DNA of 64,000 nucleotides from Clostridiales bacterium (GTDB lineage: Bacteria > Bacillota > Clostridia > Oscillospirales > Acutalibacteraceae), in assembly GCA_022793315.1 (NCBI GenBank), contig JAAWCO010000084.1, forward strand, positions 3,364-67,363, in the 5' to 3' direction. Both the position numbers and the translations under genes were made by a program. The notes beneath the pieces were generated by a model, which saw only the letters and a list, made by a program, of their open reading frames with translations, searched no databases and was not told where the DNA came from. Below, piece by piece: positions 4,291 to 46,529 of this stretch. Positions within the stretch are counted from its first letter, which is position 1, and each line of letters starts with the position of its first letter.

Positions 4291-6978
4291 TTATTTCCCG
4301 TGCTTTCTGCGGCACCAGACCAGCACCGATGCGGAGACTGCCATCAGAGTACCGGCCGCCAGAGGCAGGCCCGCGCCGGTGGAGGGATTCGTACCGGGCT
4401 TCTGACCGGAAGCGGACGGGGTTGACGGCCCCGCAGTCGTCGGATTCGCTGAGGGATCAGACGAGGGGGAGGTTGACGGACCCGCAGAAGGATCAGCGGA
4501 GGGATCCGTTGACGGGTCGGACGGCGTCTGAGCGGAGGATACCAGAGCAAACTGGCCCAATATAACCGGCGTCAGGGCAGTACCGGCCGCGTAAACGCGC
4601 ATGCCGGTAATCGTGACCTTGCTGTCCTGAATCCACTCTTCTTTCAGATCCAGGTCGGACAGGCGGAGATAACCGCTGTGCCGCTTTCCATCGCCCACGA
4701 TATCGCCGGAGCCGGCATTGTAGCTCACGCCGGGGATATACGAGTTGAGCGTCAGGGCGTCATCGCTGTTCATGGGTGTGTCCCCGTTGCCGAAATAGAC
4801 GATCAGAGAGGTATCTACCCCCTGCTCCACCCGGAAATCGTACCAGATTTGCGCGCTGTCCACCGCTGCTGTCAGGGGGATGTCCAGCTCGTGATCCGCT
4901 TTGGGCCAGAGGCCATCCACATTCTGAAGGGTCAGACAGCCGTTGTCGTCGGGTGCGATGATCATATTGCCCTCCCCCGACCAGTCGTAAGGATTCAGGC
5001 TGAACAGCGGCTGCACCTGAGCGCCTTCTACCGCCGGCAGGTCCGGAGAGGGAACCGTCCCCGGGCTGCTGTCGGCGCCGGCCTCATACACCTCCAGCTC
5101 CGCACAGGAAATGAAGTATTCGCTGCCGCCGGGGACACCGCAGAGCCGGATGCCGGTGCCAGTCTCATTATTCAGCTGGAAATAGAAGGTTTCAAAGGGA
5201 TCGCCGAAATCGGAAAAGCTGTTGGAGACTGGATAGGTGCTGCCGCTGCATTCCACATCCACCCACTGTCCGCCGCGCTGCACCTGAATGCGCAGGCCGT
5301 TGGCAAACCAGCCGCCATTATTAAAGTGTTTGCCTTCCTGGAACACCACCATGCCGAAGGTGTGCTCCTCTTCAAAAGTATAGCCAATCCACTGCTCTTC
5401 GGCGGTGGCGTCCCAGTGATAAGTATCAAACTGATCCTGATCACCGCCGCTGCCTGCATCGGGTTTGATACCATCCGCAATGACCCCGATATCCGGATTG
5501 CCGCCTCCGCCCTGAGGCATGTGGGAGGCGCCTGCCGTTCCCTGTGAGGCGATATTGCGTCCGGAGACCCATTCCCTGGTGCGGGTATAGGTTTCGCCGT
5601 CAACGGAGGTGATCGTACAGGTGACCGTGTACAGGCCGCTGCTCTGATACTGGTGGGAGACGCGCAGTCCCTCCGCGTTCGACCCGTCGCCAAAATCCCA
5701 TGCCACTGACCGGATCATGGATTCATCATAGACACGAAGGTTGAAGGTGACGGTGGAGCCCGACGGTGCCGTCTGAATGGACAGGGGACAGATTTCGGGA
5801 AGCTGCTCCAGCGGGGGAGGAACAATCTCTTCTCCGGCTGGAATGGTCCAGCTGTCGCCGTTAATGGAGCCGCCGTATTTGACAAAGGCTTCCTCTGCCA
5901 GCGCCAGATTCATATCGACAATGTCCTGAAAATCGTATTCAGTATAGCTGAATTTTGTACCGGTGAGTTCCAGACCGCTTTTCCACTTATCCGGGATGGC
6001 CTCATAACCCATCCAGTTGCCCAGAATGGAGGCCGCGGTGGATGGATTGCAGTCACTGTCCTGCCCGCACATCATGGAGATTTTCATACTCTGCTCAAAA
6101 TCACCCTGGCCGTAGAGAAGGCCGATCAGTACATAGGCGGCGTTGAGCTTGGCATCGATGTTGAAGGAGATGCCGGCCCCCTCTATGCAGTGATCCGCTT
6201 CTCCCCAGTTGTCCTCGATAACCTGCCAGGTCTGCTGCCAGGTCATCCCCTGATCATAGCAGCGGTAGACATCCTCAATCGCCTCGCGGAACAGGCTGCC
6301 CTCCGGCACCGACTGGCGTCCCGCCTCCAGGATCTCGTCCAGTGTGTCGGCCGTAAAGGCCCGGGCATGCATGGCCGAAACGTAGACGCCGCCGTAGACA
6401 CCGTCGCCGTAGTTCATGATATGCCCCAGCTCCCACGCCCGGCTGATGGCGGCGTTGGTAAGGCCCGGCAGCATTTGGCCCACAAAATCAGCCTCAATCT
6501 GCCAGTCAATGTCATCGCTGTGGTCGTTATAGAGGTAATGGCCCGACAGGGGGGCGTGAATACCCGCTCGAAGATTGAGACGGGCCGCCAGATTGGCATG
6601 AAACAGAGCAAAGGAGGTGTCGCGGAAATATTCTCCTACTGTTTTCACATCACAGTCCACACCGTGATCGGCCAGCGCCTGCATCAGCGGAATTTCGGCA
6701 TACAGGTCATCCTGCCAGAAGCCTCCATTGACCATGGAGGGGGTCCATTCCGGTATCTCGTCCTCTGTCAGCATACGGCCCTTGGCCTGAAATTCTGTTG
6801 GCGCGGCCCAGGCCACGCCGGCCATCTGGCCGGCCCAGCCGCCCAGAATTTTGTCATATACCTCCTGCCGGCTTAAAACAACCGGGCCAGCTGCCGCCTT
6901 GGCGGGCAGAACGCCCCCAACAGCCCCCGCCAGAAGAGCGGCGCTCAGGAGCCATCCTGCGAAACGCTTGACCTTCAT
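4291..6978 (-). CDS. secreted, wall-anchored multidomain ADP-ribosylglycohydrolase-family protein (cassette 1)
   Basis: 895-aa ORF with an AAGGAGGA RBS and a signal peptide (MKVKRFAGWLLSAALLAGAVGGVLPAKAAA). ARH-family motifs are AAPTEF, WQDDLY and GQDSDCNPST. It also has a PKD-like block (WDFGDGS...SGLYTVTCTI), a discoidin/CBM-like block, an uncharacterised beta-rich module, a DPS-repeat stalk, and NPSTG followed by a hydrophobic helix and RRKHGK. Confidence 0.85.
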   Translation of the reverse strand: MKVKRFAGWLLSAALLAGAVGGVLPAKAAAGPVVLSRQEVYDKILGGWAGQMAGVAWAAPTEFQAKGRMLTEDEIPEWTPSMVNGGFWQDDLYAEIPLMQALADHGVDCDVKTVGEYFRDTSFALFHANLAARLNLRAGIHAPLSGHYLYNDHSDDIDWQIEADFVGQMLPGLTNAAISRAWELGHIMNYGDGVYGGVYVSAMHARAFTADTLDEILEAGRQSVPEGSLFREAIEDVYRCYDQGMTWQQTWQVIEDNWGEADHCIEGAGISFNIDAKLNAAYVLIGLLYGQGDFEQSMKISMMCGQDSDCNPSTAASILGNWMGYEAIPDKWKSGLELTGTKFSYTEYDFQDIVDMNLALAEEAFVKYGGSINGDSWTIPAGEEIVPPPLEQLPEICPLSIQTAPSGSTVTFNLRVYDESMIRSVAWDFGDGSNAEGLRVSHQYQSSGLYTVTCTITSVDGETYTRTREWVSGRNIASQGTAGASHMPQGGGGNPDIGVIADGIKPDAGSGGDQDQFDTYHWDATAEEQWIGYTFEEEHTFGMVVFQEGKHFNNGGWFANGLRIQVQRGGQWVDVECSGSTYPVSNSFSDFGDPFETFYFQLNNETGTGIRLCGVPGGSEYFISCAELEVYEAGADSSPGTVPSPDLPAVEGAQVQPLFSLNPYDWSGEGNMIIAPDDNGCLTLQNVDGLWPKADHELDIPLTAAVDSAQIWYDFRVEQGVDTSLIVYFGNGDTPMNSDDALTLNSYIPGVSYNAGSGDIVGDGKRHSGYLRLSDLDLKEEWIQDSKVTITGMRVYAAGTALTPVILGQFALVSSAQTPSDPSTDPSADPSAGPSTSPSSDPSANPTTAGPSTPSASGQKPGTNPSTGAGLPLAAGTLMAVSASVLVWCRRKHGK
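4375..4389 (-). other. NPSTG sortase-type cell-wall sorting motif (cassette 1)
   Basis: Encodes N-P-S-T-G, followed by 20 hydrophobic residues and a C-terminal RRKHGK tail. Confidence 0.6.
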
Positions 6979-7079
6979 GAAATGATCCTCCTTATTTTTT
7001 GTTTTACCCTGAAAAGTTCTTCTTGCTTTTACTGTTAGGTTATCGTATATTTATAATAAATACAACGCATTAACAGACC

Positions 7080-7094
7080 ATTATTTATGCAAAT
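7080..7094. promoter_or_regulatory. conserved ATTTG-NN-CAAAT box in the divergent promoter (cassette 1)
   Basis: ATTATTTATGCAAAT. The same box is at 11030 and 14274 in equivalent positions. Confidence 0.35.
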
Positions 7095-7146
7095 CCAATC
7101 AGGTTGACGATAAGAGGACGGATTGACACCTGGCAGGAGAAGGAGT

Positions 7147-8064
7147 ATGCAAAATCAATTCATGTCTTCCCTCCGTATGGAGCCCTTTCTATTCCATTTC
7201 ACCCGGGAATGTCCGCTGGATGAAAGCATTCTTCGACAGCGGCCTCTTCCCAATGACCTTCAGTCCCTGCACTATCACGATGCGTTTGAGCTGGGTTATT
7301 GTTACAGCGGCGAGGGGCTTTTTCTCATTGATGGCGAGATTATGCCGTTTCAGGAGGGGGCGGCCGTCATGATCTATCGCGGACAGCTTCACAAAGCACA
7401 AAGCGCCTCTGCCGAAGGAAGCGAGTGGGTGTTTTTATCCGCTGACCTTGCTCTGACGCTGTCCGATATTGACCCCAGCCGGCTGAATGGGCTGCTCGTT
7501 CCGCCGGAAGGCTTTTCTCCCGCCGACTGCCTGCTGACGGAACAGAAGGATCCCGTTATTCCTCTTCTGATCCGCACGGTTATTGAGGAGCTTGACCGCA
7601 AGGAGGAGGGGTATCGCGGCACGGTCCGCGCTCTGCTGTGGGCAGCTCTTTCCCGTCATCATCGTCTGATGCGGGATCACTGTATGGAGGATACCGGAAC
7701 CCCCGATTTGCTGCTGGAGATTGATCCTGCCATTCACTATCTCACCGCCCATTTTACCGAGGAGGTACGTATCGCAGAGCTGGCAGCGCTCTGTCATCTC
7801 AGTGAAGCGACCCTCCGCCGCCGGTTCCGGGAACGGCTGGGTCTGTCGCCTCAGGATTATCTGCATCAGCTGCGCGTTCGAGACGCCGCCATGAGGCTGA
7901 TGACCTCCGACTGTTCGGTGTCAGAGGCGGCCTATCAGGCGGGCTACAATACACTGTCCTGCTTCTTTCGCCAATTCTGCCGGCTGTACGGGATTTCCCC
8001 CACCGCCTGGCGGAAAGAGCGTCGGAAACATTCTTTTCAGGCAGAGGAAGAGGCCGCCTTCTGA
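7147..8064 (+). CDS. AraC family transcriptional regulator with N-terminal cupin sensor (cassette 1)
   Basis: ATG 7147 follows GGAGAAGGAG. Cupin-like LHYHDAFELGYCYSGEGLFLIDGE. C-terminal AraC HTH (LSEATLRRRFRERLGLSPQDYLHQLRVRDAAMRL, YNTLSCFFRQF). Confidence 0.85.
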   Translation: MQNQFMSSLRMEPFLFHFTRECPLDESILRQRPLPNDLQSLHYHDAFELGYCYSGEGLFLIDGEIMPFQEGAAVMIYRGQLHKAQSASAEGSEWVFLSADLALTLSDIDPSRLNGLLVPPEGFSPADCLLTEQKDPVIPLLIRTVIEELDRKEEGYRGTVRALLWAALSRHHRLMRDHCMEDTGTPDLLLEIDPAIHYLTAHFTEEVRIAELAALCHLSEATLRRRFRERLGLSPQDYLHQLRVRDAAMRLMTSDCSVSEAAYQAGYNTLSCFFRQFCRLYGISPTAWRKERRKHSFQAEEEAAF

Positions 8065-8128
8065 AACGAGATGGTTTTTTATGCTTCCCGCCGGCAGAGG
8101 CAGGCGCACGAAAACCGGTTACAGTAAA

Positions 8129-8164
8129 GCAGCAGGTCCGGAAAATTCCGGACCCGCTGCTTTT
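8129..8164. terminator. bidirectional terminator between AraC-1 and the cassette-2 enzyme
   Basis: GCAGCAGGTCCGG-AAAATT-CCGGACCCGCTGC followed by TTTT. Confidence 0.6.
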
Positions 8165-8200
8165 AAAAATGAGGAAGGAAAATGAGAGAGAACGGTACGG

Positions 8201-10933
8201 TTATTTCCCGTGCTTTCTGCGGCACCAGACCAGCGCTGACGCGGAGACCGCCATCAGTGCACCGGCCGCCAGAGGCAGGCCCGCGCCGGTGGAGGGATTC
8301 GTACCAGGCTTCTGGCCGGAAGCGGACGGGGTTGACGGCGCCGTAGCCGTCGGATCTGTTGAGGGATCCGATGAGGGGGTTGACGACGGATCCGCAGACG
8401 GATCAGATGAGGGGGCGGTTGACGGACCAGCAGACGGATCGGTGGAGGGATCCGTTGACGGGTCGGGCAGAGTCGGGTCAGCGGATACCAGAGCAAATTG
8501 CCCCAATATAACCGGCGTCAGCTCTGCCCCCGCGGCATAGGCGCGGAAGCCCGTGATGGCCGCCTTTCCATCGGTGATCCATGCCGGGTCCAATCCCATA
8601 TTGGCCAGATCGAGATAACCGGAATACCGCTTGTCATTGCCCACAATATCACCGGAGCCGGGTTCGATGACAGCGCCGGGAATCAGGGAGTTCAGGCTGA
8701 CGCTCCGCTCGTTGTCCAGGGGATTGCCTTCGTCCCCAAAGAAAACGATCAGACTGGTGTTGACACTGGAGGACACCTTGAAATCATACCAGAGGCGTGT
8801 TTTACCGATTTCCGCCGTCAGGGGTGTGGCCGGCACATAATCCGCTTTAGGCCATTTGCCGTTCATATTTTGCAGAATCAGGCAGCCATTATTATCTGGG
8901 GTGATGACCAGATCCTGCTCCCAGGTCCAGTCGTAGTTGCTCATGCTGAACAGCGGATGGACCTCTCCATTTTCCACCACGGGGAGAGACGGTGAGGGGG
9001 AATCCGGGTCCTGTATCGCGGCGCCCTCCTCATACACCTCCAGCTCCGCACAGGAGATAAAATAGCTGCTGCCGCCGGCGCTGCCATACAGGCGGATGCC
9101 GGTGCCGGTTTCGTTATTGAGATAGAAGCAGAAGGTTTCAAAGGACTCGCCAAAGGCCTCCCGGTCGGAGGCTACCGGATATTTGTCCCCGGTATAGGAC
9201 ACATCGACCCATTGCCCATCGCGCTGTACCTGAATATGCAGGCCGTTTTTGAACCAGCCGCCATCGACAAAGTGCTCGCCCTCCTGGAACACAACCATAC
9301 CAAAGGTATGCTCCTCGTCAAAGGTATAGCCAATCCACTGCTGGAGGTTGGGGTTCGCCATCTGGAAGGTATCAAACTGCTGCATCAGCGTCGCCTCCCC
9401 CTGAATCGGGCGGACGCCATCCGCAATAACACCAATATCCATATTGCCGCCGCCGCCCTCCGGCTGATGGGAGACTACCGGCGTCCCCTGTGAGGCGATA
9501 TTGCGTCCGGATATGCAGGCTTTTTCGCGGGTGAACACTTCGCCCTCATGGGAGGTGATGGTACATTTGACCGTATAATAGCCGCTGGCGCTGTAGCTGT
9601 GGGTCGCACGGATGCCCTCACCGGTGCTGCCGTCGCCGAAATCCCACGCCACCGACTGGATCATGGAATCGTCATAGGCGCGCAGATAGAAGGTGAAGGA
9701 GGAGGCAGATTCCGCTATCTGGATGTCCAGCGGGCAAATTTCAGGCAGCTGCTCCAGCGGAGGAGGAACAACAGCCTCCGCCGCCAGGCTGGCCGGAATG
9801 GCCCAGGTATCGCCGCTGATCGAACCGCCGTATTTGACAAAGGCTTCCTCTGCCAGCGACAGATTATTTTCGACCGCCGTATTAAAATCGTAATCGGTGA
9901 AGGCAAACGGGGACCCGGTCCGCTGCAGCGCGCTCTTCCACTTATCCGGAATCCAGTCATACCCCTTCCAGCTGCCCAGAATAGCACCGACGGTGGAGGG
10001 ATTACAGTCGCTGTCCTGACCGCACATCATGGAGATTTTCATGCTCTCCTCAAAATCTCCCCTGCCGTACAGAAGGCCCATCAGCACATAGGCAGAGTTG
10101 AGTTTGGCGTCAATGTTAAAGGGGATATCCTTTCCGTAAATACAGTGATCTTTGTCCCACCATTTATCATTGACGACCTGCCAGGTCTGCTGCCAGGTCA
10201 TCCCCTTGTCATAGCAGCTGTAGACATCCTCAATGACCTCCCGGAACAGGCTGCCTTCCGGCACCGACTGGCGTCCTGCCTCCAGAATTTCGTCCAATGT
10301 ATCGGCGGTGAAGGCGCGGGACTGCATGGCCGCCACATAAACGCCGCCATAGACCCCGTCGCCGTAGCAGACGATATGCCCCAGCTCCCAGGACTTGTTG
10401 ATGGCGGCGTTGACCAGTCCAGGCAGCATTTGTCCCACAAAATTGGACTCGATCTGCCAGTCGAGATCATCGGTGTGATTGCTGTACAGATAATGACCCG
10501 ACATCGGTGCGCTGATGCCGGCGCGCAGGTTGACACGCGCCGCCAGATTGGCCTCGCACAGCGGGAAAGAGGTGTCGCGGAAATATTCGCCCACCGTTTT
10601 GACATCGCAGTCCACACCATGGTCAAGCAATGCCTGAATAAAAGGGATTTCCACAAACAGATCGTCCTGAGCAAAGCCGGCATTGATTTCGCTGGGCTTC
10701 CAGACAGGAACATCCGACTCCGCCAGCATGCAGTCGTTAAACTGGAATTCGGTGGGCTGGCCCCAGGTCGCACCGGCCATCTGGCCCACCCAGCTGCCTG
10801 CAATTTTATCGTATACCTCCTGACGGCTCAGGGTCACGCCGCCTCCCGCTGCCCGGGCGGGTAGAACACCACCGGCGGCCCCTGCCAGAAGGGCGGCGCT
10901 CAGAAGCCAGCCGGTAAAACGCTTGGCCTTCAT
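8201..10933 (-). CDS. secreted, wall-anchored multidomain ADP-ribosylglycohydrolase-family protein (cassette 2, paralog)
   Basis: 910-aa ORF, colinear with 4291..6978 and identical at most aligned positions by eye. Same motifs (GQPTEF, AQDDLF, GQDSDCNPST, WDFGDGS) and the same stalk and NPSTG anchor. Confidence 0.85.
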   Translation of the reverse strand: MKAKRFTGWLLSAALLAGAAGGVLPARAAGGGVTLSRQEVYDKIAGSWVGQMAGATWGQPTEFQFNDCMLAESDVPVWKPSEINAGFAQDDLFVEIPFIQALLDHGVDCDVKTVGEYFRDTSFPLCEANLAARVNLRAGISAPMSGHYLYSNHTDDLDWQIESNFVGQMLPGLVNAAINKSWELGHIVCYGDGVYGGVYVAAMQSRAFTADTLDEILEAGRQSVPEGSLFREVIEDVYSCYDKGMTWQQTWQVVNDKWWDKDHCIYGKDIPFNIDAKLNSAYVLMGLLYGRGDFEESMKISMMCGQDSDCNPSTVGAILGSWKGYDWIPDKWKSALQRTGSPFAFTDYDFNTAVENNLSLAEEAFVKYGGSISGDTWAIPASLAAEAVVPPPLEQLPEICPLDIQIAESASSFTFYLRAYDDSMIQSVAWDFGDGSTGEGIRATHSYSASGYYTVKCTITSHEGEVFTREKACISGRNIASQGTPVVSHQPEGGGGNMDIGVIADGVRPIQGEATLMQQFDTFQMANPNLQQWIGYTFDEEHTFGMVVFQEGEHFVDGGWFKNGLHIQVQRDGQWVDVSYTGDKYPVASDREAFGESFETFCFYLNNETGTGIRLYGSAGGSSYFISCAELEVYEEGAAIQDPDSPSPSLPVVENGEVHPLFSMSNYDWTWEQDLVITPDNNGCLILQNMNGKWPKADYVPATPLTAEIGKTRLWYDFKVSSSVNTSLIVFFGDEGNPLDNERSVSLNSLIPGAVIEPGSGDIVGNDKRYSGYLDLANMGLDPAWITDGKAAITGFRAYAAGAELTPVILGQFALVSADPTLPDPSTDPSTDPSAGPSTAPSSDPSADPSSTPSSDPSTDPTATAPSTPSASGQKPGTNPSTGAGLPLAAGALMAVSASALVWCRRKHGK
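8285..8299 (-). other. NPSTG sorting motif (cassette 2)
   Basis: N-P-S-T-G, then AGLPLAAGALMAVSASALVW, then CRRKHGK. Confidence 0.6.
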
Positions 10934-11029
10934 GAAATTTCCTCCTTTTTCTCTTTTGAATAAAAAATCCTCTTGCTTTTACGGTTAGATTATCGTATAT
11001 TTACTACAAATACAATCTCTGCATTAGAT

Positions 11030-11044
11030 ATTATTTGTGCAAAT
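11030..11044. promoter_or_regulatory. conserved ATTTG-NN-CAAAT box (cassette 2)
   Basis: ATTATTTGTGCAAAT. A second GTGCAAAA direct repeat lies at 11087-11094. Confidence 0.35.
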
Positions 11045-11097
11045 ACAATCAGCATTTTTCATCGAACATCATCTTCGTGCAAAAGAGGTAAGATATC

Positions 11098-12015
11098 ATG
11101 CAAAATCGCTCAATTTCCTCCTCCCGTGTGGAGCCCTATCTGCTGCACTTTACCCGGGAATCCCCCATGGATGAAAATATTATTCGTCAGACGCCCCTGC
11201 CGGAGGAGTGCCCTTCGCTGCATTATCACAATGTGTTTGAGCTGGGCTACTGCTACAGCGGGACAGGACAGTTTCTGATTGACGGCGAGATGGTGCCCTT
11301 TCAGGAGGGAACGGCGGTGATGATCTACCGCGGACAGCTCCACCGGGCGCAGAGCACGCCCAACGAATGGAGCGAATGGGTATTTTTATATGCGGACCTT
11401 CCACTGGTACTCTCCGATGTCGACCCCAGTCGGCTGAATGGCCTGCTTGCCCCGCCGGAGGGCTTTTCTCCGGCAGATTGCCTGCTGACGGAGCAGAAGG
11501 ACCCCCTTCTGCCCGGCCTGATCCGCGCCATCATTGAGGAAATCGACTGCAAGGATGAGGGATATCGCAGCTCGGTTTGCGGCCTTCTATGGACGGCTCT
11601 TTCCCGCCACCACCGCCTGATGCAGCAGCATCGCACAGAGACGATGGGAACCCCTGACTCGCTGCTGGAGATTGACGCCGCCGTCTATTATCTTTCTCAC
11701 CATTTTACAGAAGAGGTACATATTTCCCAGCTGGCGGAGCTTTGTCATCTCAGTGAAGCGACCCTCCGCCGCCGGTTTCGGGAGCGGCTGGGACTGTCGC
11801 CTCAGGATTATTTGCACCAGCTGCGTGTTCATGACGCGGCCATGCGGCTGATGACCACCGACTGTTCCGTATCGGAGGCAGCCTATAAGGCAGGATATAA
11901 CACCCTATCCTGTTTCTTTCGCCAGTTTGACAGGCTGTATGGGATGTCGCCCACTGTCTGGCGGAAGGAGCACCGCGAAGGCTCTTTCCCAGCGGGGGGA
12001 AAAGATGCTTCCTGA
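11098..12015 (+). CDS. AraC family transcriptional regulator with cupin sensor (cassette 2, paralog)
   Basis: 305-aa ORF, colinear with 7147..8064. The HTH region is almost identical (LSEATLRRRFRERLGLSPQDYLHQLRVHDAAMRL). Confidence 0.85.
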   Translation: MQNRSISSSRVEPYLLHFTRESPMDENIIRQTPLPEECPSLHYHNVFELGYCYSGTGQFLIDGEMVPFQEGTAVMIYRGQLHRAQSTPNEWSEWVFLYADLPLVLSDVDPSRLNGLLAPPEGFSPADCLLTEQKDPLLPGLIRAIIEEIDCKDEGYRSSVCGLLWTALSRHHRLMQQHRTETMGTPDSLLEIDAAVYYLSHHFTEEVHISQLAELCHLSEATLRRRFRERLGLSPQDYLHQLRVHDAAMRLMTTDCSVSEAAYKAGYNTLSCFFRQFDRLYGMSPTVWRKEHREGSFPAGGKDAS

Positions 12016-12148: not shown

Positions 12149-14173
12149 TTACTGCCCGCGCTTTTTTCGGCACCAGCCCAGAGCCGCCGCGGAGACCGCC
12201 AGCAGTGTCCCAGCCGCCAGGGGGAGACCCACGCCGGTGGAGGGGCTTGTACCGGGCTTCTGGCCAGAGGCGGACGGAGTGGTCGAAGGGGCAGTCGATG
12301 GGTCCGCCGACGGGCCGGCAGAAGGATCAGACGAGGGATCTGCTGATGGATCAGTGGAGGGATCTGTTGACGGATCAGATGACGGGCTGGTGGAGGGATT
12401 AGTGGATGGGTTGTCTGAAGGAGCTGAGGACGGAGCGGTGGAGGGCTCCGGAGCCTGATCCATTTGTCCTACAGAAAGATCGTTCCATGTCAGTGTCGCT
12501 GTCGGAGACCCGTAATCTGACAAGAGGATTTGTGTCACGGTGATGGTCCCGGAGGTTCCCAGCACCGTCGGCAGATGGATGTATTTATCAACAGGGCTTT
12601 CGATATTGATATCGGTGATCCCCTTGCCATACATCATTTCAGCAAAGGTTTTGCGCTGCTCCTGCCCCGCCCCGTCGATATAGTCGAAAAAGCCATTGGC
12701 GGCTCCGGTATCCGGCGTGACGCGGAAATGAATATAGGGGGTTGCCGACAGATCAATGGTCTGGTTCAGAGAATAGGATACGGCAAACCAGCCGGAGCTT
12801 TTCTGGCACAGCGTCAGACTGCCATCCTGGTTGATGGTGGAAACAATCCCGTCACCGGTCAGACTGTCGATGCTTTGCGGCAGCAGAGAGCTCGCTTTTT
12901 GATAGCTGGGCTTTTCCGGAACCGGCTGGTCAGTGGTCACGCTGAACTCGCGCAGCACTGTCGGCCGGCTGTTGGCGCCTATGAAATGCAATTTGACGCC
13001 GGAGAATAAAACATTGCCGTTTTCATCCGCAAAGCTCTCCGGGACGCCCAGATCGGTGAGAAGGAAGGATCCTTTAATTGTCTGCCCGGCCTGAAGATTG
13101 CCGGTGGCATCCAATTTCAGATCGGGATAAAGGCCGCTGAGAGCAAGCGGAAGAGATATATAGGTGGTATCATAATTGTGTGTGGGAGTAACACCGTTAA
13201 AATACAAAAGGATGTTGGTAACCGTTCCGTCAATGGTGAGATCAAGATTCAGTTCGGTGCCCTCCAGCGGAACACAGACCCCTTTATCCACCGGGGGCGA
13301 ATAGTGGTACTCCGCCCCCCAGACGCTGGTATTGGAAATGCGCAGAGACTGATTCAGCTTTTGCACCTTTATTGTGCCGATCAGCGGTTCAGTCCAGTCG
13401 GCCGGGTCCAGAGAGATCAGGCTTTGGGTACCTTTTACAGGTACTGTAGGAATCTGGGGATACTCAACGCGGGGGGCATTGGCATCCTGACGGAAACGCT
13501 CCTGCATATAGGCGACAAGCGTTTCCGCATACCTTTCCTGGCCGTAGGGGGAGAGATGGACGCCGTCGATTTGAAGGAAATCATAAATGTCGTGCTGATT
13601 GCACATCTCCCGCATATCCACCAGATCCACATCCTGCTCAGCGGCGATTTCCCGGATGACACGGTTGTAGACATCAATGCTGTCGGTAAGGGTGTCTTCC
13701 CCATCGGGATAGGTGCCGACATTTTTCATCCAGGCGTCGTCCCGCACATACGGAGCGGTGAACAGGAGGGGAGTCGCGCCCAGCTTCTGAACCCGGCTGA
13801 CCAGCGTGCTCATGTTCTGGCGATAGTTATCAGGAGTAACCACCGGATCGGTGCCCCAGCGGACAAAGTCGTTTGTACCAAAGGCGATTACCACATAGTC
13901 CGGCTTCGCCGCCGCTACATCCCTGTCAAAGCGGGCCAGACCGTCCGCTGAGGTATGGCCGCCGATACCGGCATTCACCAATTTCATGTTAAGCTCTTTT
14001 GACGCCATCTCCGCCCAGTTGCTTTGGGCGGTAAGACTGTCGCCCAGGGTGACAAGGGTTTTCCCATCCAATATGGGGGCATCCGGCGCCGGGGCCGCCG
14101 CTGCGGATACGGCGCCCGCCGCCAGGGCAGCGCTTAAGACCAGAGAAAAAAACCTCTTTCCTATCCTGCTCAT
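12149..14173 (-). CDS. secreted, wall-anchored SGNH/GDSL hydrolase with two beta-rich accessory modules (cassette 3)
   Basis: 674-aa ORF with a signal peptide (MSRIGKRFFSLVLSAALAAGAVSAAAA). SGNH blocks are GDSLT, GIGGHT, FGTNDF and DGVHLSPYG. It has a DPS-repeat stalk and SPSTG followed by a hydrophobic helix and CRKKRGQ. Confidence 0.8.
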   Translation of the reverse strand: MSRIGKRFFSLVLSAALAAGAVSAAAAPAPDAPILDGKTLVTLGDSLTAQSNWAEMASKELNMKLVNAGIGGHTSADGLARFDRDVAAAKPDYVVIAFGTNDFVRWGTDPVVTPDNYRQNMSTLVSRVQKLGATPLLFTAPYVRDDAWMKNVGTYPDGEDTLTDSIDVYNRVIREIAAEQDVDLVDMREMCNQHDIYDFLQIDGVHLSPYGQERYAETLVAYMQERFRQDANAPRVEYPQIPTVPVKGTQSLISLDPADWTEPLIGTIKVQKLNQSLRISNTSVWGAEYHYSPPVDKGVCVPLEGTELNLDLTIDGTVTNILLYFNGVTPTHNYDTTYISLPLALSGLYPDLKLDATGNLQAGQTIKGSFLLTDLGVPESFADENGNVLFSGVKLHFIGANSRPTVLREFSVTTDQPVPEKPSYQKASSLLPQSIDSLTGDGIVSTINQDGSLTLCQKSSGWFAVSYSLNQTIDLSATPYIHFRVTPDTGAANGFFDYIDGAGQEQRKTFAEMMYGKGITDINIESPVDKYIHLPTVLGTSGTITVTQILLSDYGSPTATLTWNDLSVGQMDQAPEPSTAPSSAPSDNPSTNPSTSPSSDPSTDPSTDPSADPSSDPSAGPSADPSTAPSTTPSASGQKPGTSPSTGVGLPLAAGTLLAVSAAALGWCRKKRGQ
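12233..12247 (-). other. SPSTG sorting motif (cassette 3)
   Basis: S-P-S-T-G, then VGLPLAAGTLLAVSAAALGW, then CRKKRGQ. Confidence 0.6.
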
Positions 14174-15000: not shown

Positions 15001-15105
15001 TTGCTTTTTGGGGCCTGTCCGACTATACTTATTCCATTATTTCAGCTCGGGGAGCGAACCGCACGCCCTCCAAAGCTGCGAACGAAATGCAAAAGGAGGA
15101 GAAAC

Positions 15106-16497
15106 ATGGAAAAACTGTTCAAGCTGAAGGCGCATGGAACCACCGTGAGAACCGAAATCATGGCGGGTATCACCACCTTTCTGACCATGGCGTACATTCT
15201 GGCCGTCAATCCCGGCATGCTTTCCGGCGCTTCCCTGGGCTTCAGCACCGGTATGAACGCGGGCGCCGTCTTTACCGCTACGGCGCTGGCGGCGGCCATC
15301 GGCTGCCTGCTCATGGCCTTTCTGTCCAACTATCCGGTGGCGCTGGCCTCCGGCATGGGGCTCAACGCCTATTTCGCCGTGGTATGCATGAATCTGATGG
15401 GCGAAGGGGTGGAGAATCCCTGGAAGGTCGCGCTGACCGCCGTTCTGGTAGAGGGCGTCATCTTCATCCTGCTGTCCATCTTCAAATTCCGGGAAACGCT
15501 GGTCAACACCGTGCCGCAGAACCTGAAGCTCGGGATTACGGCTGGTATCGGCCTGTTTATTGCCATCATCGGTCTGAAGGGCGCCGGCATTGCGGTCGCC
15601 AGTCCCTCCACGCTGGTGGACCTGGGCGACGTGTCCTCCCCCGGCTTTGTGCTGGCCTTTGTGGGCCTGATCGCGATTGGCGTCCTCTCCCATTTCAAGG
15701 TACGCGGCGCGATTCTGTGGGGGATTCTGGGCACCTGGCTCCTCGGCATTGTGGCCGAACTCGGCGGATGGTATCAGGTGGACCCCGCCGCCGGCATGTA
15801 TTCTCTGATCCCGGACTTTTCCGCCGGCGTGAAAAGCCTGATTCCTGCGGCGCCTCATGTTCTTCAGTTTGACTTCGGCTATGTGGCATCCAACCTCACC
15901 AATTTTATTGTTGTCGTGTTTTCCTTCCTGTTTGTGGACCTGTTTGATACGGTGGGCACCCTGATCGGCGTCGCCAGTAAGGGCAATCTGCTCGATGAGG
16001 AGGGCAAGCTGCCGAAGGTCGGCCGCGCACTGATGGCCGATGCCATCGGCACCGTGGCGGGCGCCTGTCTGGGCACCTCCACCGTCACCAGCTATGTGGA
16101 GAGCACCGCCGGCGTGGCGGAGGGCGGCCGCACCGGTCTGACCGCCGTCACCACTGCCGCGCTGTTTATTCTGGCTCTCTTCTTCGGCCCTGTCTTTACG
16201 GCGATTCCCGGTTTTGCCACGGCGCCCGCACTGGTTTATGTCGGCCTGCTGATGATGTCGGCTGTGCTGAAAATGAAGTTTGAGGGCGATATGGCCGATG
16301 TGCTGGGCGGCTTTATGGCGATTATCATGATGCCGTTCACCTATTCCATCGCCAATGGCATCATGTTCGGCATCCTGACCTGGTTCATCATCAAGCTGAT
16401 CACCGGCAAGATCCGCGAAATTCATCCGGTAATGTATGTGGTGGCCGCACTTTTCATCCTCCGTCTCGTCACACTGGTCATACCGGCCTTTTCCTGA
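15106..16497 (+). CDS. NCS2/AzgA-type purine (adenine/guanine/hypoxanthine) permease
   Basis: ATG 15106 follows AAAGGAGGAG. MEKLFKLKAHGTTVRTEIMAGITTFLTMAYILAVNPGML is a typical N-terminus for this family. Multi-TM throughout. Confidence 0.85.
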   Translation: MEKLFKLKAHGTTVRTEIMAGITTFLTMAYILAVNPGMLSGASLGFSTGMNAGAVFTATALAAAIGCLLMAFLSNYPVALASGMGLNAYFAVVCMNLMGEGVENPWKVALTAVLVEGVIFILLSIFKFRETLVNTVPQNLKLGITAGIGLFIAIIGLKGAGIAVASPSTLVDLGDVSSPGFVLAFVGLIAIGVLSHFKVRGAILWGILGTWLLGIVAELGGWYQVDPAAGMYSLIPDFSAGVKSLIPAAPHVLQFDFGYVASNLTNFIVVVFSFLFVDLFDTVGTLIGVASKGNLLDEEGKLPKVGRALMADAIGTVAGACLGTSTVTSYVESTAGVAEGGRTGLTAVTTAALFILALFFGPVFTAIPGFATAPALVYVGLLMMSAVLKMKFEGDMADVLGGFMAIIMMPFTYSIANGIMFGILTWFIIKLITGKIREIHPVMYVVAALFILRLVTLVIPAFS

Positions 16498-17182: not shown

Positions 17183-17499
17183 GCTCCTGCATCCTCCTGT
17201 TATTTTTTCAACGGCTTTCGTGTGTCCGGCTCCTGCATGCCGGGCACGGCGAAGCGCGGAAATCTTGACAGGGCTAGTATCTGTTCTCCGTCGGGCTTTA
17301 TGCGATAAAAATCGGAAATTTTCCTGTCAGAATCTGCCTGATCATTTTTTCTTCAGCGGCAGGTGATTTCTCTGCACCGTTATTTTTCCCATTTTTAGAC
17401 GACAAAATACGGAATAAATGACATTGTATAAACTGTTGGGATTTGCTATGATAAGCAGGTATTCTTTCGTATTTTTTACCCGTGAAGGAGGATTTGCCC

Positions 17500-19272
17500 G
17501 TGATAAAAAAAGCGGCGCTGTGTATCAGCGCGCTGGCGCTGTTGACAACGCTGCTGGTAACCGCCATGGACCAGGCTTCCCGATATCCCACGACCCTGTA
17601 TGCAAAGCCGGCCAGAATAGCGGAAATCCGAAGCACCCGGCAGGAAACACCCGCCGCCGACGGCACGGAGGAGCTGCCAGTCCCCGATCTTCGGATCAAT
17701 GGCACGGCGTTGTTTTACGACCGGCTCAGCGCCACCTTTTATTATTCTCTGACCGACGACCGGAAAAGCTGGCCCGATTTCACCTTCACACTGGAGGGGG
17801 TGCAGCCTGAAGGACGTCTGTGCTTTACACGCGATTTCATGCAGGAAAGCCGGTCGGAGGTATTAGAGGCCAGCAGCCGGATTCCCTTTCTGATCTACGA
17901 CAATGAGACCTATCAGAGCTATTACCTGACCTTTTCCACCCTGCCGCTGATGCAGATCCGTCTCCATGAGCTGCCGGAGGAGGTCCGCATTCACGAAACG
18001 CTGAAGGACGGCGACGACACGACCCGCCTGCCCCAGGACGTACTTCTGGATTATGACGTTCTGCTGGCGGAGGATGCACCCATCCGGCGGGAGGATTCGT
18101 ACGCCACGGTGACTCTTTTTGATCCGCGCGGAGAGGAGGACGACCGGAAATACGGCGAGGTGTTCCTCTCCGAGGCACGCCTGCATGTGCGCGGACGCAG
18201 CAGCGTCAACTATCCGAAAAACAGCTTTCGGATGGAGCTGCTGGTCCCCGATGAAAAGGACCCCTCCCTGCTGATTGAAAACAAGGTGCCCCTGCTGGGG
18301 ATGCGGAAGGACGGGGACTGGGTGCTGAATGCCCTGTACGCTGAACCCACCAAAATCCGGGAAAAGCTGGCCGCTGAAGTGTGGATGGCCATGAACGAGG
18401 ATGTGGAAACCGTCGGAGAAGCGGCAGGCTACCGGGTGGAATATATCGAGGTCTTTATTGACGACACCTATTGGGGGCTGTACGGTCTGTCCGAGCGGGT
18501 TGATGCGAAAATGCTGGGGCTGACCTCCTCAGAGAATCCCGCCGGCTCCGACCTCCTTTATTGGAGCATCGCCGACAAGGATCAGGAATGGACCGGCTAC
18601 AGCCAGCCGGAAACCCCTTATTACAGCGGCGGTTATGAGCTTCGGTTCCCTGATATTATCAGCGAACCGTCTGCGGACTGGTGGCGCCCCTTCGGGCAGC
18701 TGGTGCGTGCCGCACGGGAGAAGGAGCTGGACGACCGGGCTGTTGAATTCAGCGCCATTGCCGATGTGAACAGCGCGATCAACTACTACCTGTTTATTCA
18801 GGCGGTCAGCGGCGTGGATAATGTGATACAGAACACCTATTTCCTCTATCGGGCGGAGACCGGAAAATTCACCTTTCTGCCATGGGATCTGGACCAGACC
18901 TTCGGCAATGTGTGGCAGGGTGAAATGCCCCGTCTGACGGGAGAGGATTACAACACCGTGGACTGGTTCCGCCCGTGGTGGGTCACTCAGGAGATGTTCG
19001 ACGAGAACGCCGGGGAGATGCTGTCCCTGCTGCGCAACCGTCTGCGAACCCTGCGCCGGGGCGTGCTGGACGAGAAGGCAATGGTCCGGCGTATTGATGC
19101 GATTGAAAAACAGCTGGACGCCTCCGGCGTTCTGACACGGGAGGGAAACCGCTGGCCGCAGGGCGGCCACAACTCCCATACCGGCGCGCTGCGTCAGTTT
19201 GTGGTGGCGCGGCTGATCCGTCTGGATTCGCAGGTCCGCAGGATGGCGTGGGAAGGGGGATGGCAGTCTTGA
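17500..19272 (+). CDS. cotH: CotH family protein kinase-like protein, membrane or signal anchored
   Basis: GTG 17500 follows GAAGGAGG. N-terminal hydrophobic segment. CotH-like blocks are HVRGRSSVNYPKNSFRMEL, DGDWVLNALYAEPTKIREKLA and YIEVFIDDTYWGLYGLSERVD. Confidence 0.8.
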   Translation: MIKKAALCISALALLTTLLVTAMDQASRYPTTLYAKPARIAEIRSTRQETPAADGTEELPVPDLRINGTALFYDRLSATFYYSLTDDRKSWPDFTFTLEGVQPEGRLCFTRDFMQESRSEVLEASSRIPFLIYDNETYQSYYLTFSTLPLMQIRLHELPEEVRIHETLKDGDDTTRLPQDVLLDYDVLLAEDAPIRREDSYATVTLFDPRGEEDDRKYGEVFLSEARLHVRGRSSVNYPKNSFRMELLVPDEKDPSLLIENKVPLLGMRKDGDWVLNALYAEPTKIREKLAAEVWMAMNEDVETVGEAAGYRVEYIEVFIDDTYWGLYGLSERVDAKMLGLTSSENPAGSDLLYWSIADKDQEWTGYSQPETPYYSGGYELRFPDIISEPSADWWRPFGQLVRAAREKELDDRAVEFSAIADVNSAINYYLFIQAVSGVDNVIQNTYFLYRAETGKFTFLPWDLDQTFGNVWQGEMPRLTGEDYNTVDWFRPWWVTQEMFDENAGEMLSLLRNRLRTLRRGVLDEKAMVRRIDAIEKQLDASGVLTREGNRWPQGGHNSHTGALRQFVVARLIRLDSQVRRMAWEGGWQS

Positions 19273-26999: not shown

Positions 27000-27360
27000 C
27001 CATCAGCGTCAGCAGATTTTCGTCATTTTCCATTCTATGTTTTTCCCCTTTTCCCCGCGATTTTTCTTTGTTTTCAGTATACGGGTTTACCGGTCCGGCT
27101 GTCAAGATATACCACATTGGTCGCAGAGATACCTCCGCTTTCAAAGTCCTCACTCTCCGGGCAGAAAGACAACCCCTCCGGAAAAAACTCACTCTGGCTT
27201 TTTGTGTTCAGTGTCCCCGTCAGAAAAATTTACCGCTCTTCCGCCGGCATATCCCCACCAGGTGCGGTCACACTAAAGGTGTGTATTTCGCACGAGTTGT
27301 CAGATTCTCTGTATGACGCACCCCGTTGATCATCTGTCAGCAAATAAGGAGGCATCCCTC

Positions 27361-28716
27361 ATGGAGAAAAGGAAGGTATTTCACCGTCGTTCCCTGATTC
27401 GGGCCGTCAGCTTTGCCGCCGCCGTCATGGTGGCCCTGTCGGCGGCGGCAATCAGCGGTTACGCCGCCGCCCGGAAAAATCGAAACGCTATGGAGTACAG
27501 CTATCAGCGCGCGCTCAGCGAGCTGAATGAATACGTCAGCAACATCACTGTCGCACTGGATAAAGGCAAGTACGCCGCCACGCCCAAGCAGCTGCAAAGC
27601 CTGTCCGGCAAGCTGTGGCGGGAAACCGGCAGCGCCAAAAGCGCCCTGAGCCAGCTCCCGGTTGCCGGCGAGGAAATGGCCGCCACCTATAAATTCCTGT
27701 CCCAGCTGGGGAGCTTCTGTGTCACCCTCTCCAACCGGGTGGCTGACGGCGGTAGCATTACCGAGGAGGAGGCCGCTCTCTTCCGCCAATTGTCCCAATA
27801 TGCGGAGGAGGTTTCCGACCGTCTGGCCCTGATGGAAAGCCAGGTGGAAAACGGGAGTCTGGAGCTGGGCGAGGTGCAGGCCGCCATGCAGACCACCGGC
27901 GACGCTCCGGCGGAAAGGATCTCCGGTCTGGACGAAGGGTTCCGTGAAATGGAGGAGGGCTTTGAGGATTATCCCACGCTGATCTACGACGGTCCCTTTT
28001 CCGACCATGTGCTGCAACAGCGGTCAAAACTTCTTGACGGTATGGAGGAGATGGGGATGGAGCCGGCCCTGGCCCTGGCAGAGAAGCTCACCGGCGTATC
28101 CGGTCTGCGTTACGCCGGCGAAACCGGCGGGAATCTTCCCTGTCACCGCTTTGAAACGGACGGCTTCACGGTCAGCATGACCAAAGCGGGCGGCGCGCTC
28201 GATTACTTCCTCAACTCCCGCGAGATCGGTGAAGCCACTCTCACCCCCGGCCAGGCGCAGTCCCTCGCGGTCAAAGCGCTGTCCCGCTATCTGGAGGGGG
28301 AATTCAAACCCTCCTACTACAGCATCAACGGCGGCGTGCTCACCGCCAATTTTGCCGCCGTTCAGGACGACGTGACCCTGTATCCCGACCTGGTCAAGGT
28401 AGGGGTCGCCATGGATACCGGCGACATCGTCTCGTATGACGGGCGCGGCTATCTGATGAACCACACCGTCCGTTCTCTTCCGGCCCCCTCCCTCAGCCGG
28501 GAACAGGCCCGCGAAACGGTCAGCCCTCTGTTGAGCGTTACGGGCGAAGGGCTGGCGGTGGTTCCCGGCGACGGCCTTTCTGAAAAGCTGTGCTATGAGT
28601 TCGCCTGTACCGGCGAGGAGGGGGAAAATGTGCTGGTCTATATTGATGTTCAGACCGGCATGGAGGAGCAGATTCTGATCCTGCTGGAGGACGAAGGCGG
28701 TACACTGGTGATCTGA
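27361..28716 (+). CDS. ypeB: germination protein YpeB
   Basis: ATG 27361 follows AATAAGGAGG. It has an N-terminal TM, then YSYQRALSELNEYVSNITVALDKGKYA...LSGKLWRETGSAKSALSQLPV, and C-terminal PepSY-like repeats. Confidence 0.8.
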   Translation: MEKRKVFHRRSLIRAVSFAAAVMVALSAAAISGYAAARKNRNAMEYSYQRALSELNEYVSNITVALDKGKYAATPKQLQSLSGKLWRETGSAKSALSQLPVAGEEMAATYKFLSQLGSFCVTLSNRVADGGSITEEEAALFRQLSQYAEEVSDRLALMESQVENGSLELGEVQAAMQTTGDAPAERISGLDEGFREMEEGFEDYPTLIYDGPFSDHVLQQRSKLLDGMEEMGMEPALALAEKLTGVSGLRYAGETGGNLPCHRFETDGFTVSMTKAGGALDYFLNSREIGEATLTPGQAQSLAVKALSRYLEGEFKPSYYSINGGVLTANFAAVQDDVTLYPDLVKVGVAMDTGDIVSYDGRGYLMNHTVRSLPAPSLSREQARETVSPLLSVTGEGLAVVPGDGLSEKLCYEFACTGEEGENVLVYIDVQTGMEEQILILLEDEGGTLVI

Positions 28717-42638: not shown

Positions 42639-42674
42639 CGTTTACCCTCCTATACATCCTGGGACATTGGCAGC

Positions 42675-43445
42675 TCATCGGCGCACGGGAATCCCCCGCT
42701 GCGCCAGAAACTCCTTCAGCTCGCCAATGTCAATCTCATGATAATGGAACAGGGACGCCGCCAGCACCGCGTCGGCCCGCCCCTGTGTAAAGGCGTCGGC
42801 AAAATGCGCCATGGTCCCCGCGCCGCCCGATGCGATGACCGGGATACCCGCGCCGCCGGAAACCGCGGCGGTCAGCGCCAGATCGTAGCCCTGTTTGGTT
42901 CCGTCACAGTCCATGCTGGTCAGCAGCAGCTCCCCCGCGCCCAAAGCCTCGGCGCGTGCCGCCCATTCCAGCGCATCCAGCCCTGTATTGAGGCGGCCGC
43001 CGTGCTTGTACACATCCCAACCGGAGCCATCGGCACGGCGGCGGGCATCAATGGCCACCACCACGCATTGGCTGCCGAAGCGTTCCGCCGCCTCGGCAAT
43101 CAGCTCCGGCCGGTCGATGGCCGCCGAATTGACCGCCACCTTATCCGCGCCCTGCCGCAGAATCGCGCGGAAATCCTCCACACAGCGGATACCCCCGCCC
43201 ACCGTGAAGGGGATGGACAGCTGCTCCGCCACCCTCCCGGCCAGCGCCGCCGCTGTGGCGCGCCCTTCATGGGAGGCGTTGATATCAAGGAAAACCAGCT
43301 CGTCGGCGCCGGAGGATGAATAGGCGGCAGCGGTCTCCACCGGATCACCCGCATCCCGCAGACCGAGAAAGTTAACCCCCTTGACCACCCGGCCGTCCTT
43401 GATATCCAGGCAGGGGATAATGCGCTTTGCGTACAGGGAAACCAC
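42675..43445 (-). CDS. hisF: imidazole glycerol phosphate synthase cyclase subunit
   Basis: [21 protein letters not shown] near the N-terminus. A GTG start at 43445 is chosen because the upstream part of the ORF is non-protein-like. Confidence 0.85.
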
Positions 43446-43479
43446 CGCCTTTTGCAGAATGAAATGGAAAAAATCCGTT

Positions 43480-44085: not shown

Positions 44086-44116
44086 GGCGTCTCCCCCTTC
44101 TGTCAGCTTTCAAGCA

Positions 44117-44144
44117 AAACGGCGCGGCAGGAACCGCGCCTTTT
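44117..44144 (-). terminator. hairpin between 44237..45181 and hisH
   Basis: GGCGCGG-CAGGAA-CCGCGCC flanked by A/T runs. Confidence 0.45.
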
Positions 44145-44236
44145 CTATTCTATCATACCATCCGCAGGCAGGCGGGTCAAGAGCCGCCGCCAATTTTTCG
44201 GCAATTTCCGCCGTTTCTCCGGAGGACCGGCCACGG

Positions 44237-46413: not shown

Positions 46414-46529
46414 CGGTCTCCATCCTTCCTACCATTGATTGACAGGGAAAAAACGCGCCTGCCGGCGTTTTCGGCGATATCCTGCGGCCCTGCCGCCCGC
46501 GGCCTTCCCCCGCTGCGTGAACGTCCGCG

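Follow-up and report, generated by a model that had tools for sequence, protein, structure and literature searches.

A 64,000-nucleotide stretch of DNA from a Clostridiales bacterium (contig JAAWCO010000084.1; the whole stretch is termed the window here) carries two paralogous genes, A and B, each encoding a large protein in which an ADP-ribosylglycohydrolase (ARH) fold is combined with β-sandwich modules and predicted signals for secretion and wall anchoring. It is proposed here, with a probability of about 0.5, that A and B are secreted, metal-dependent ribosyl (ribofuranoside) hydrolases that scavenge ribose from extracellular glycans or glycoconjugates. Since a secreted and seemingly active ARH fold occurs in a carbohydrate-active setting and relatives have ribose genes as neighbours, an extracellular ribosyl hydrolase is the most economical reading. 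What can be observed directly is the architecture and fold of the proteins, the conservation of their ligands, the size of the clade with its fusion partners, and the neighbourhoods of the genes; secretion and anchoring, loss of ADP binding, a ribose product, cooperation with an esterase and control by AraC-type regulators are what we infer. The proteins belong to a known fold family and do not represent a categorically new system. The two genes are arranged as follows.

4291..6978, minus strand: gene A, 895 amino acids, ARH-fold enzyme predicted to be secreted and wall-anchored (open reading frame, translation and Pfam)
6892..6978, minus strand: A residues 1-29, predicted Sec-type signal peptide (MKVKR, hydrophobic core, AKA/AAG)
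5788..6891, minus strand: A residues 30-397, ARH-fold domain, putatively catalytic, with E62, Q89-D90-D91, D155-E162 (DDIDWQIE) and D307-S-D309-C310-N311
5569..5787, minus strand: A residues 398-470, PKD domain (WDFGDGS)
5083..5568, minus strand: A residues 471-632, CBM32/discoidin-like β-sandwich (the GGWF module)
4489..5082, minus strand: A residues 633-830, second β-sandwich, of no Pfam family
4291..4488, minus strand: A residues 831-895, Pro/Ser/Thr/Asp linker, NPSTG, hydrophobic segment and RRKHGK, a predicted sortase-type sorting signal
8201..10933, minus strand: gene B, 910 amino acids, paralog of A with the same architecture
10847..10933, minus strand: predicted signal peptide of B
9734..10846, minus strand: ARH domain of B
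9515..9733, minus strand: PKD domain of B
9029..9514, minus strand: CBM32-like module of B
8435..9028, minus strand: second β-sandwich of B
8201..8434, minus strand: linker and predicted NPSTG anchor of B

The two proteins are 68% identical overall, 74% in the ARH domain and 55% in the last globular module. A is an exact match to NCBI protein MCI8554356.1, which is labelled "PKD domain-containing protein". The exact B protein was not found in a collection of 15 billion proteins in which both A and an esterase from the same contig (MCI8554359.1) are present; B may carry another start or a pseudogene label in the public record, and its open reading frame (ORF) is intact in the window.

An initial annotation, made from the letters alone, had assigned the N-terminal domain of both proteins to the ARH fold, and profile and structural comparisons agree. 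PF03747 (ADP_ribosyl_GH) matches A at 119.2 bits and B at 109.4 bits against a Pfam cut-off of 26.2, the match spanning residues 46-330 of each protein and positions 1-286 of the 287 in the model. An AlphaFold model of A residues 30-397 has a predicted local distance difference test (pLDDT) score of 95.2 and a predicted template modelling (pTM) score of 0.95, and when it was compared with the PDB by Foldseek the top 30 matches were all DraG, ARH3, Tri1 or ARH-related proteins. The TM scores against DraG, ARH3, the Thermus thermophilus protein 2cwc and Tri1 lay between 0.55 and 0.75 at sequence identities of 12-19%. No solved structure closer than these distant ARHs was found by Foldseek or by sequence and family-profile searches of the PDB, the alignable part in the family-profile search being confined to the C-terminal motif.

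The acidic residues that had been singled out as retained metal ligands are E62, D90, D91, D307 and D309, the aligned counterparts of hARH3 E41, D77, D78, D314 and D316. A HMMER alignment to 2cwc placed QDD opposite TDD, DSDC opposite DADT and E62 opposite the family Glu, and hhalign placed D307, D309 and C310 opposite D314, D316 and T317 of hARH3. As had also been claimed, Gln and Cys stand where Thr is expected: the Thr ligand positions of the TDD and D.DT motifs are occupied by Q89 and C310 in the alignments to 2cwc and hARH3, and Thr is present at neither. Conservation was assessed in 240 diverse ARH domains taken from two protein searches, amongst which E62 was kept in 239, D90 in 240, D91 in 236, D307 in 239 and D309 in 239 (98-100%), C310 in 232 (97%) and Q89 in 200 (83%). 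Some 50 further positions specific to the clade, polar or aromatic, are conserved in at least 90% of the same domains, including N129, R133, N135, D156-x-D158-W-Q-I-E162, the YGDGVYGG motif and N279. In B only four departures from the consensus, each of them conservative (V55A, Y93F, I157L and D164N), occur amongst the 74 positions conserved in the clade at 85% or more. As judged from these alignments, conservation of the metal ligands is far above chance expectation, and because near-invariant ligands together with about 50 conserved positions are the pattern expected of an enzyme rather than a binding module, the conservation of the five acids and the putative pocket fits an active enzyme. 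That the ARH-like domain should instead be a degenerate binding module or adhesin, in the manner of jellyfish crystallin J1, is very hard to credit: the changes at both Thr ligands and the adhesin-like architecture of PKD domain, discoidin module and sortase anchor could be read that way, but across phyla the five acidic ligands hardly ever vary, nor do dozens of residues of the pocket, and the domain has repeatedly been fused to other enzymes.

In ARH3 MgII is chelated by the 1'' and 2'' oxygens of the substrate, with Thr317 as a ligand and Glu41 as the residue that activates water (PMC8319183). By analogy, this chemistry, in which the ribose diol is held by metal and a water is activated by Glu, has probably been carried over into A and B. 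The recognition of ADP is another matter. Mutations F143L, S148A and G150E in the adenosine-binding loop of ARH3 cripple the enzyme (PMC8319183). When the profile of the secreted clade that holds A and B (given the name ARH1 here, its paralogous family being ARH2) was compared with hARH3 by global hhalign, no alignment was obtained, and a local run recovered only the D.D(T/C) motif and helix 1; since the direct comparison failed, the ARH2 paralog was taken as a bridge. In hhalign ARH2 aligned with the secreted clade at 100% probability, but with hARH3, over its full length, at only 34%. In the bridged alignment, which is weak at its 34% step, hARH3 S148-Y149-G150-N151-G152-G153-A154-M155-R156 lies opposite S154-D155-D156-I157-D158-W159-Q160-I161-E162, so that ARH3 G150 falls opposite D156. 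This is suggestive only, but the Gly-rich phosphate/adenine loop of ARH3 appears to have been swapped for the acidic, Trp-containing motif DDIDWQIE, which, if the loop alignment is right, might disfavour a diphosphate.

These comparisons bear on one alternative, an extracellular (ADP-ribosyl)hydrolase acting on ADP-ribosylated proteins, poly(ADP-ribose), O-acetyl-ADP-ribose or NAD-derived compounds from lysed cells, in nutrition or in defence against toxins. We regard it as quite improbable. Membership of PF03747, retention of all the acidic metal ligands and the fact that every one of the nearest solved structures is an ADP-ribosyl hydrolase speak for it, as do the Exo_endo_phos nuclease/phosphatase domains fused to two relatives, the use of ADP-ribose by Bacteroides thetaiotaomicron through its ribose-utilisation (rus) locus (10.1101/574913) and a neighbouring esterase that could deacetylate O-acetyl-ADP-ribose. 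It is difficult to reconcile, however, with an identity to characterised ARHs of 12-19%, with the change of both Thr ligands and the absence of a residue equivalent to ARH3 D34, or with a loop that now seems to be acidic and would be expected to repel a diphosphate; no ADP-ribosyltransferase domain was seen amongst the annotated neighbours in the window and seven related loci, and the repeated fusions to carbohydrate-active enzymes (CAZymes) and carbohydrate-binding modules fit poorly with a protein or nucleotide substrate. A and B thus resemble DraG, ARH3, the characterised enzyme ARH1 (distinct from the clade so named here) and Tri1 in their all-α fold and in the five acidic residues of the binuclear metal site, but those enzymes are cytoplasmic or nuclear whereas A and B are predicted to be secreted and wall-anchored. 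A and B also have Gln and Cys in place of the Thr ligands, have not retained the counterpart of ARH3 D34, are about 70 residues longer in addition to carrying PKD, CBM32-like and other modules, and belong to a clade tied to ribose catabolism and CAZyme genes, with no ADP-ribosyltransferase partner.

Both of the export signals that the initial annotation had read in A and B can be recognised in the sequence. The N-terminus, MKVKRFAGWLLSAALLAGAVGGVLPAKA followed by AAG, has the n/h/c layout of a Sec signal peptide, seen in both proteins, and both end in a tripartite signal, NPSTG-AGLPLAAGTLMAVSASVLVW-CRRKHGK, comprising the motif, a hydrophobic stretch and a basic tail. Relatives have SPATG, TPTTG, TPKTG or NPGTG as the sorting motif. 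The corresponding profile, NF033846 (Rumino_NPXTG), scores below its cut-off of 23.5 bits in both proteins (16.4 in A and 18.8 in B). This type of anchor ends just three ORFs of the window, namely A, B and a GDSL esterase, and no sortase was seen amongst the approximately 40 window ORFs that were scanned. A and B are thus predicted to be secreted and anchored by sortase. Across the clade an N-terminal hydrophobic segment is present in approximately 86-90% of members, whereas clostridial ARH2 paralogs are without one.

The modules that follow the ARH domain resemble those of clostridial surface CAZymes. The PKD domain anticipated from its WDFGDGS block scores well above threshold with both PF18911 (49.8 bits in A and 44.3 in B, against 27) and PF00801 (39.6 and 34.3, against 23.5), and a family profile matches the PKD domains of the collagenases ColH and ColG. 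The discoidin/CBM-like block that had been predicted next to it, the GGWF module, falls below the threshold for F5_F8_type_C (20.2-24 bits against 28.2; E 4.4e-5). AlphaFold models A residues 470-835 as two β-sandwiches with a mean pLDDT of 82, the first being at about 90, and in Foldseek searches this first module matched CBM32-5 of CpGH89 (TMt 0.76, root-mean-square deviation 3.3 Å) and a chitosan-binding CBM32 (TMt 0.71), whilst the two-sandwich model matched the CBM32-1/2 tandem of ZmpB and neuropilin b1b2. The predicted structure therefore confirms a galactose-binding-domain-like β-sandwich fold despite the sub-threshold profile score. The GGWF module occurs in one to six copies in 176 of 341 relatives, all of them in a branch made up of Clostridia and the candidate phyla radiation (CPR), to which the PKD plus CBM32-like extension is restricted; Gram-negative members are of 420-630 amino acids. 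The extra β-rich module that had also been proposed corresponds to the second β-sandwich, which is all-β in the AlphaFold model of A (pLDDT 54-95), has no match in Pfam and is similar to residues 236-423 of the GDSL esterase (BLASTP E 6e-11). A search for its homologs returned only two fragments, so the module is either rare or was missed by the word index. The resulting layout of signal peptide, catalytic domain, Ig-like and CBM32-like β-sandwiches and wall anchor is that of clostridial surface CAZymes such as Clostridium perfringens GH89 and ZmpB, the differences being that the CBM32-like module of A and B lies below the Pfam threshold and that their catalytic domain has the ARH fold. To our knowledge this fold is found in no glycoside hydrolase family.

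The pair is not peculiar to this genome. A word-indexed protein search gave more than 7,500 matches at E < 1e-5, of which the top 120 all combined ARH and PKD domains, with or without the discoidin-like module, and came mostly from metagenome-assembled genomes (MAGs) of Clostridia/Oscillospiraceae. An exhaustive search at E < 1e-30 gave 342 clusters at 50% identity, in which the ARH domain usually starts at residue 25-50, and in a scan of one genome per species at least 600 stretches matched and at least 588 were confirmed, so that the clade is present in at least 588 species genomes. Members were listed from Clostridia, Planctomycetota, Acidobacteriota, Bacteroidota, Verrucomicrobiota, Hydrogenedentota, Omnitrophota, Aminicenantes and one CPR bacterium. 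The last of these, Candidatus Nealsonbacteria DGGOD1a, has a genome of 1.16 Mb and encodes a clade member of 926 amino acids (L001/L002:10001-12781), which lies amongst genes resembling those for type IV pili and type II secretion and in which a Cys-rich C-terminal region replaces the wall anchor. Databases name the family only as "ADP-ribosylglycohydrolase family protein" or "PKD domain-containing protein".

The domains to which clade members are fused are largely those of carbohydrate degradation. Anchoring and secretion are represented by dockerins, choline-binding repeats and C-terminal domains of the type IX secretion system, binding by LamG, CBM3, CBM6 and CBM96, glycoside hydrolases by GH5, GH26, GH32N, GH43 (twice), a GH84-like domain, GH92 and GH106, and esterases by GDSL (in P0168, P0178 and P0247) and α/β types. 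Such partners would also suit a glycosidase for a cis-diol sugar other than ribose (e.g. apiose, some other furanoside or a pyranoside side chain), carried by polysaccharides of plants, hosts or microbes and removed in a debranching reaction with the help of esterases. In addition to the many GH families, binding modules, esterases and dockerins, this alternative can draw on GH5 and on hybrid two-component regulator or SusD genes as neighbours, on the adjacent wall-anchored GDSL esterase with its common module and on a window without ribose genes. We nevertheless consider it rather unlikely, since the only catabolic neighbours that recur across phyla are ribokinase, RbsC-like and GlcU-like genes, the neighbouring ribokinases score almost at the equivalog cut-off for true ribokinases, and the ligand set that has been kept is the ribose-binding set of every characterised ARH.

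The link to ribose comes from a survey in which all ORFs within 6 kb of the ARH gene were clustered for 78 loci. A second, divergent ARH gene was the most frequent neighbour (13 loci), followed by ribokinase (10), LacI (6), a permease resembling RbsC (5) and a symporter resembling GlcU/RhaT (5); a neighbouring ribokinase scored 294.5 bits with the equivalog TIGR02152, for which the cut-off is 299.65. Ribose-type neighbours are usually adjacent to the ARH gene and co-oriented with it, and they were found in six phyla (Clostridia, Acidobacteriota, Hydrogenedentota, Verrucomicrobiota, Planctomycetota and Bacteroidota); the density of ribokinase genes was 19 per Mb within 3 kb of the ARH gene and 2.9 per Mb beyond. 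At L006 and L020, both from Clostridia, a regulator that joins a ribokinase domain to an AraC helix-turn-helix is followed by a cytoplasmic ARH2 and then a secreted ARH1. The ARH2-ARH1 pair, at L006:5343-6599 and L006:6596-7978, is also present in L007, L009, L017, L020, L022 and L046. ARH2 proteins have about 460 amino acids, an N-terminal extension of about 100 and the motif DTDCNG, and are without a signal peptide; their pairing with ARH1 suggests a two-step pathway, first outside and then inside the cell. In Bacteroidales locus L077 (986-12694) the gene order is SusD, DUF362, SBF transporter, KdgK-like kinase, KDPG aldolase, YhcH/DUF386, ribokinase, ARH and sugar symporter, an order that ties the enzyme to the catabolism of keto-deoxy sugar acids as well as of ribose, and in Bacteroidota locus L041 (5840-12767) a hybrid two-component regulator is followed by ARH and GH5. 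Several other recurrent clusters of neighbours were dismissed as housekeeping synteny of close relatives or as spurious ORFs in high-GC genomes. Neighbourhoods gave no support for a mobile element or a defence system as an explanation; no PADLOC scan was made. The initial annotation had suggested a glycosidase-like activity on a polymer of the surface or the host, or one on extracellular ribosyl conjugates, and the fusions to glycoside hydrolases, binding modules and esterases, together with the neighbourhoods of ribokinase and ribose-transporter genes, point the same way.

Ribose genes would also be expected around an extracellular N-ribosidase, an analogue of nucleoside hydrolases that would cleave RNA-derived nucleosides at the cell surface, the ribose and the base then being taken up by ribose and nucleobase transporters. 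This is distinctly improbable. Besides the neighbourhoods of ribokinase and ribose transporters, a xanthine/uracil permease gene 0.8 kb past the esterase gene can be cited in its favour, as can the cleavage of N-glycosidic bonds by DraG and the characterised ARH1 enzyme and the placing of ADP-ribosylglycohydrolases with "nucleoside cleaving enzymes" by Glowacki et al. (10.1101/574913). Nucleosides are β-ribosides, however, whereas characterised ARHs act on α-linkages and chelate O1'' and O2'' (PMC8319183); small soluble substrates would leave the CBM32-like repeats, dockerins and GH fusions unexplained; and a permease at 0.8 kb on the other strand is a weak linkage. The likeness to nucleoside hydrolases is one of function. 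In IUNH-type enzymes a cluster of Asp residues holds a divalent metal, binds the 2',3'-diol of ribose and activates water. Although these enzymes are found in similar ribose loci (10.1101/574913), they have an unrelated fold, act specifically on β-N-ribosides and as a rule are not surface proteins of several domains.

The closest precedent for the proposed ribosyl hydrolases lies in the Bacteroidetes. ADP-ribosylglycohydrolases are amongst the variable enzymes of the rus loci, though none has been characterised there (Glowacki et al., 10.1101/574913), and the RusGH of B. thetaiotaomicron is located at the surface and has a weak, divalent-cation-dependent activity on p-nitrophenyl-ribofuranoside, its natural substrate not having been identified (10.1101/574913). 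The concept is the same, surface or periplasmic enzymes freeing ribose for catabolism that depends on ribokinase, and Bacteroidota members of the ARH1 clade adjoin RbsK and SusD. The differences are that A and B occur in a Gram-positive clostridial genome with no SusC/D, ribokinase or transporter nearby, and that they carry PKD and CBM32-like modules, a sortase-type anchor and what is probably AraC-type regulation. No characterised secreted or CAZyme-like ARH was found in searches of the full-text literature, in which only one paper (10.1101/574913) was relevant. The word "ribofuranosidase" was absent from the literature searched, and the predicted activity itself would therefore be new.

In the window A and B are flanked not by ribose genes but by two regulators and an esterase.

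6979..7122: divergent intergenic control region of A and AraC1
7123..8064, plus strand: AraC1, cupin/AraC_binding and HTH_18 domains (Pfam), likely start ATG 7147, divergent from A
10934..11097: divergent intergenic control region of B and AraC2, homologous to 6979..7122
11098..12015, plus strand: AraC2, AraC-family regulator (Pfam), divergent from B
12149..14173, minus strand: GDSL/SGNH esterase, 674 amino acids, PF13472 at 90.9 bits

AraC1 and AraC2 share 76% identity and the intergenic regions 79%, with the blocks CTTGCTTTTAC.GTTAG.TTATCGTATATTTA and ATTATTT.TGCAAAT.CAATCAG conserved; a σ70-like site at 7028-7057 between A and AraC1 was not above chance, nor were the counts of promoter and terminator motifs in the window as a whole, and no Rfam family reached its gathering score there. 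The closest public genome, Candidatus Avimonas narfia, has a single module of divergent AraC and ARH genes with proteins 72-76% identical, and the arrangement recurs in a more distant Clostridiales MAG. AraC1 is 76% identical to the regulator divergent from ARH in Ca. Avimonas narfia and 35% identical to that in UMGS1307. Given the single module in relatives and the similarity of the paired copies, the window is best explained by tandem duplication of a two-gene module. Between AraC1 and B, whose ends converge, there is a perfect 8-bp GC-rich hairpin at 8135..8154 (GGTCCGGAAAATTCCGGACC), a likely bidirectional terminator, although terminator-like motifs there are no commoner than in shuffled sequence.

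The esterase has a signal peptide, two β-rich modules, a Pro/Ser linker of the type found in A and B and an SPSTG sorting signal, and its first β-rich module is the homolog of the second β-sandwich of A. It is a probable functional partner of the two enzymes. A jackhmmer search of the 78 loci found no GDSL esterase as a neighbour of clade members, so the partnership is a local one, with a few fusions elsewhere, and not a rule for the clade.

The mechanism that we propose can be set out from these parts. The clade would keep the binuclear metal centre that grips the cis-diol of ribose and would have lost the ADP-recognition loop, the ARH fold being redeployed as an extracellular glycosidase that hydrolyses a ribosyl (ribofuranosyl) linkage and frees ribose or a ribosyl fragment as food. 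The PKD domain, CBM32-like module and second β-sandwich would hold the enzyme on the cell surface or act as spacers, with a probable role in binding the polymer, the wall-anchored GDSL esterase probably strips acyl groups off the same substrate, and each enzyme gene would be turned on by its own divergent AraC-type sugar sensor. A more specific version, in which the ARH1 clade is an unrecognised glycoside hydrolase family whose activity is that of a metal-dependent extracellular ribofuranosidase, debranching or depolymerising ribose-containing and possibly O-acylated glycans, is put forward more tentatively, as a possibility that we rate below even odds.

A number of considerations weigh against ribose scavenging by A and B. 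We know of no extracellular α-D-ribofuranosides abundant enough to serve as food, and the ribose in known bacterial glycans is mostly β-linked. The link to ribose is present in only about 13% of sampled loci, relatives such as P0038, P0090 and P0036 lie in unrelated neighbourhoods, and the window holds no homologs of ribokinase, RbsC, GlcU or LacI, so that for A and B themselves the link is borrowed from relatives. The varied GH families to which the domain is fused point to no single polymer. Frequent co-transcription with a cytoplasmic ARH2 suggests that the product of ARH1 may be a ribosyl fragment and not ribose itself. Finally, the loop alignment depends on the 34% step and on an hARH3 sequence whose agreement with PMC8319183 was confirmed only at the residues numbered in that paper.

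The remainder of the window is occupied by housekeeping and sporulation genes, and several of its features may be recorded.

15001..16497, plus strand: xanthine/uracil-family nucleobase permease, 0.8 kb past the esterase gene, either a coincidence or a weak hint at nucleoside-derived substrates
17482..19272, plus strand: CotH kinase-like protein
27313..28716, plus strand: YpeB, which with the CotH-like protein points to a spore-forming clostridial host
42000..50000: 62-66% G+C, against about 57% elsewhere in the window, with long ORFs at 43381..44373, 45052..46707 and 47312..48382 that have no Pfam match
59716..62139, minus strand: complete aspartyl-tRNA synthetase (OB fold, tRNA-synt_2 and GAD) with a C-terminal GatC domain at residues 731-802, possibly an AspRS-GatC fusion, or else an over-extended start or two genes read as one

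Enzymes of the ARH fold have been studied almost solely as erasers of intracellular ADP-ribosylation. If the reading put forward here is true, the fold would be extended into extracellular carbohydrate catabolism, probably as a new CAZy family, and a natural function would be supplied for the ADP-ribosylglycohydrolase genes of ribose-utilisation loci. The window offers a compact test case, with two paralogs, their regulators and a partner esterase. The proposal bears on a question left by the work on Bacteroides rus loci, namely which ribose-containing nutrients are present in gut and soil and which enzymes release ribose from them, and it would imply that an overlooked pool of ribose-bearing polymers serves as a carbon source for hundreds of species in the gut, rumen, soil and sediment.

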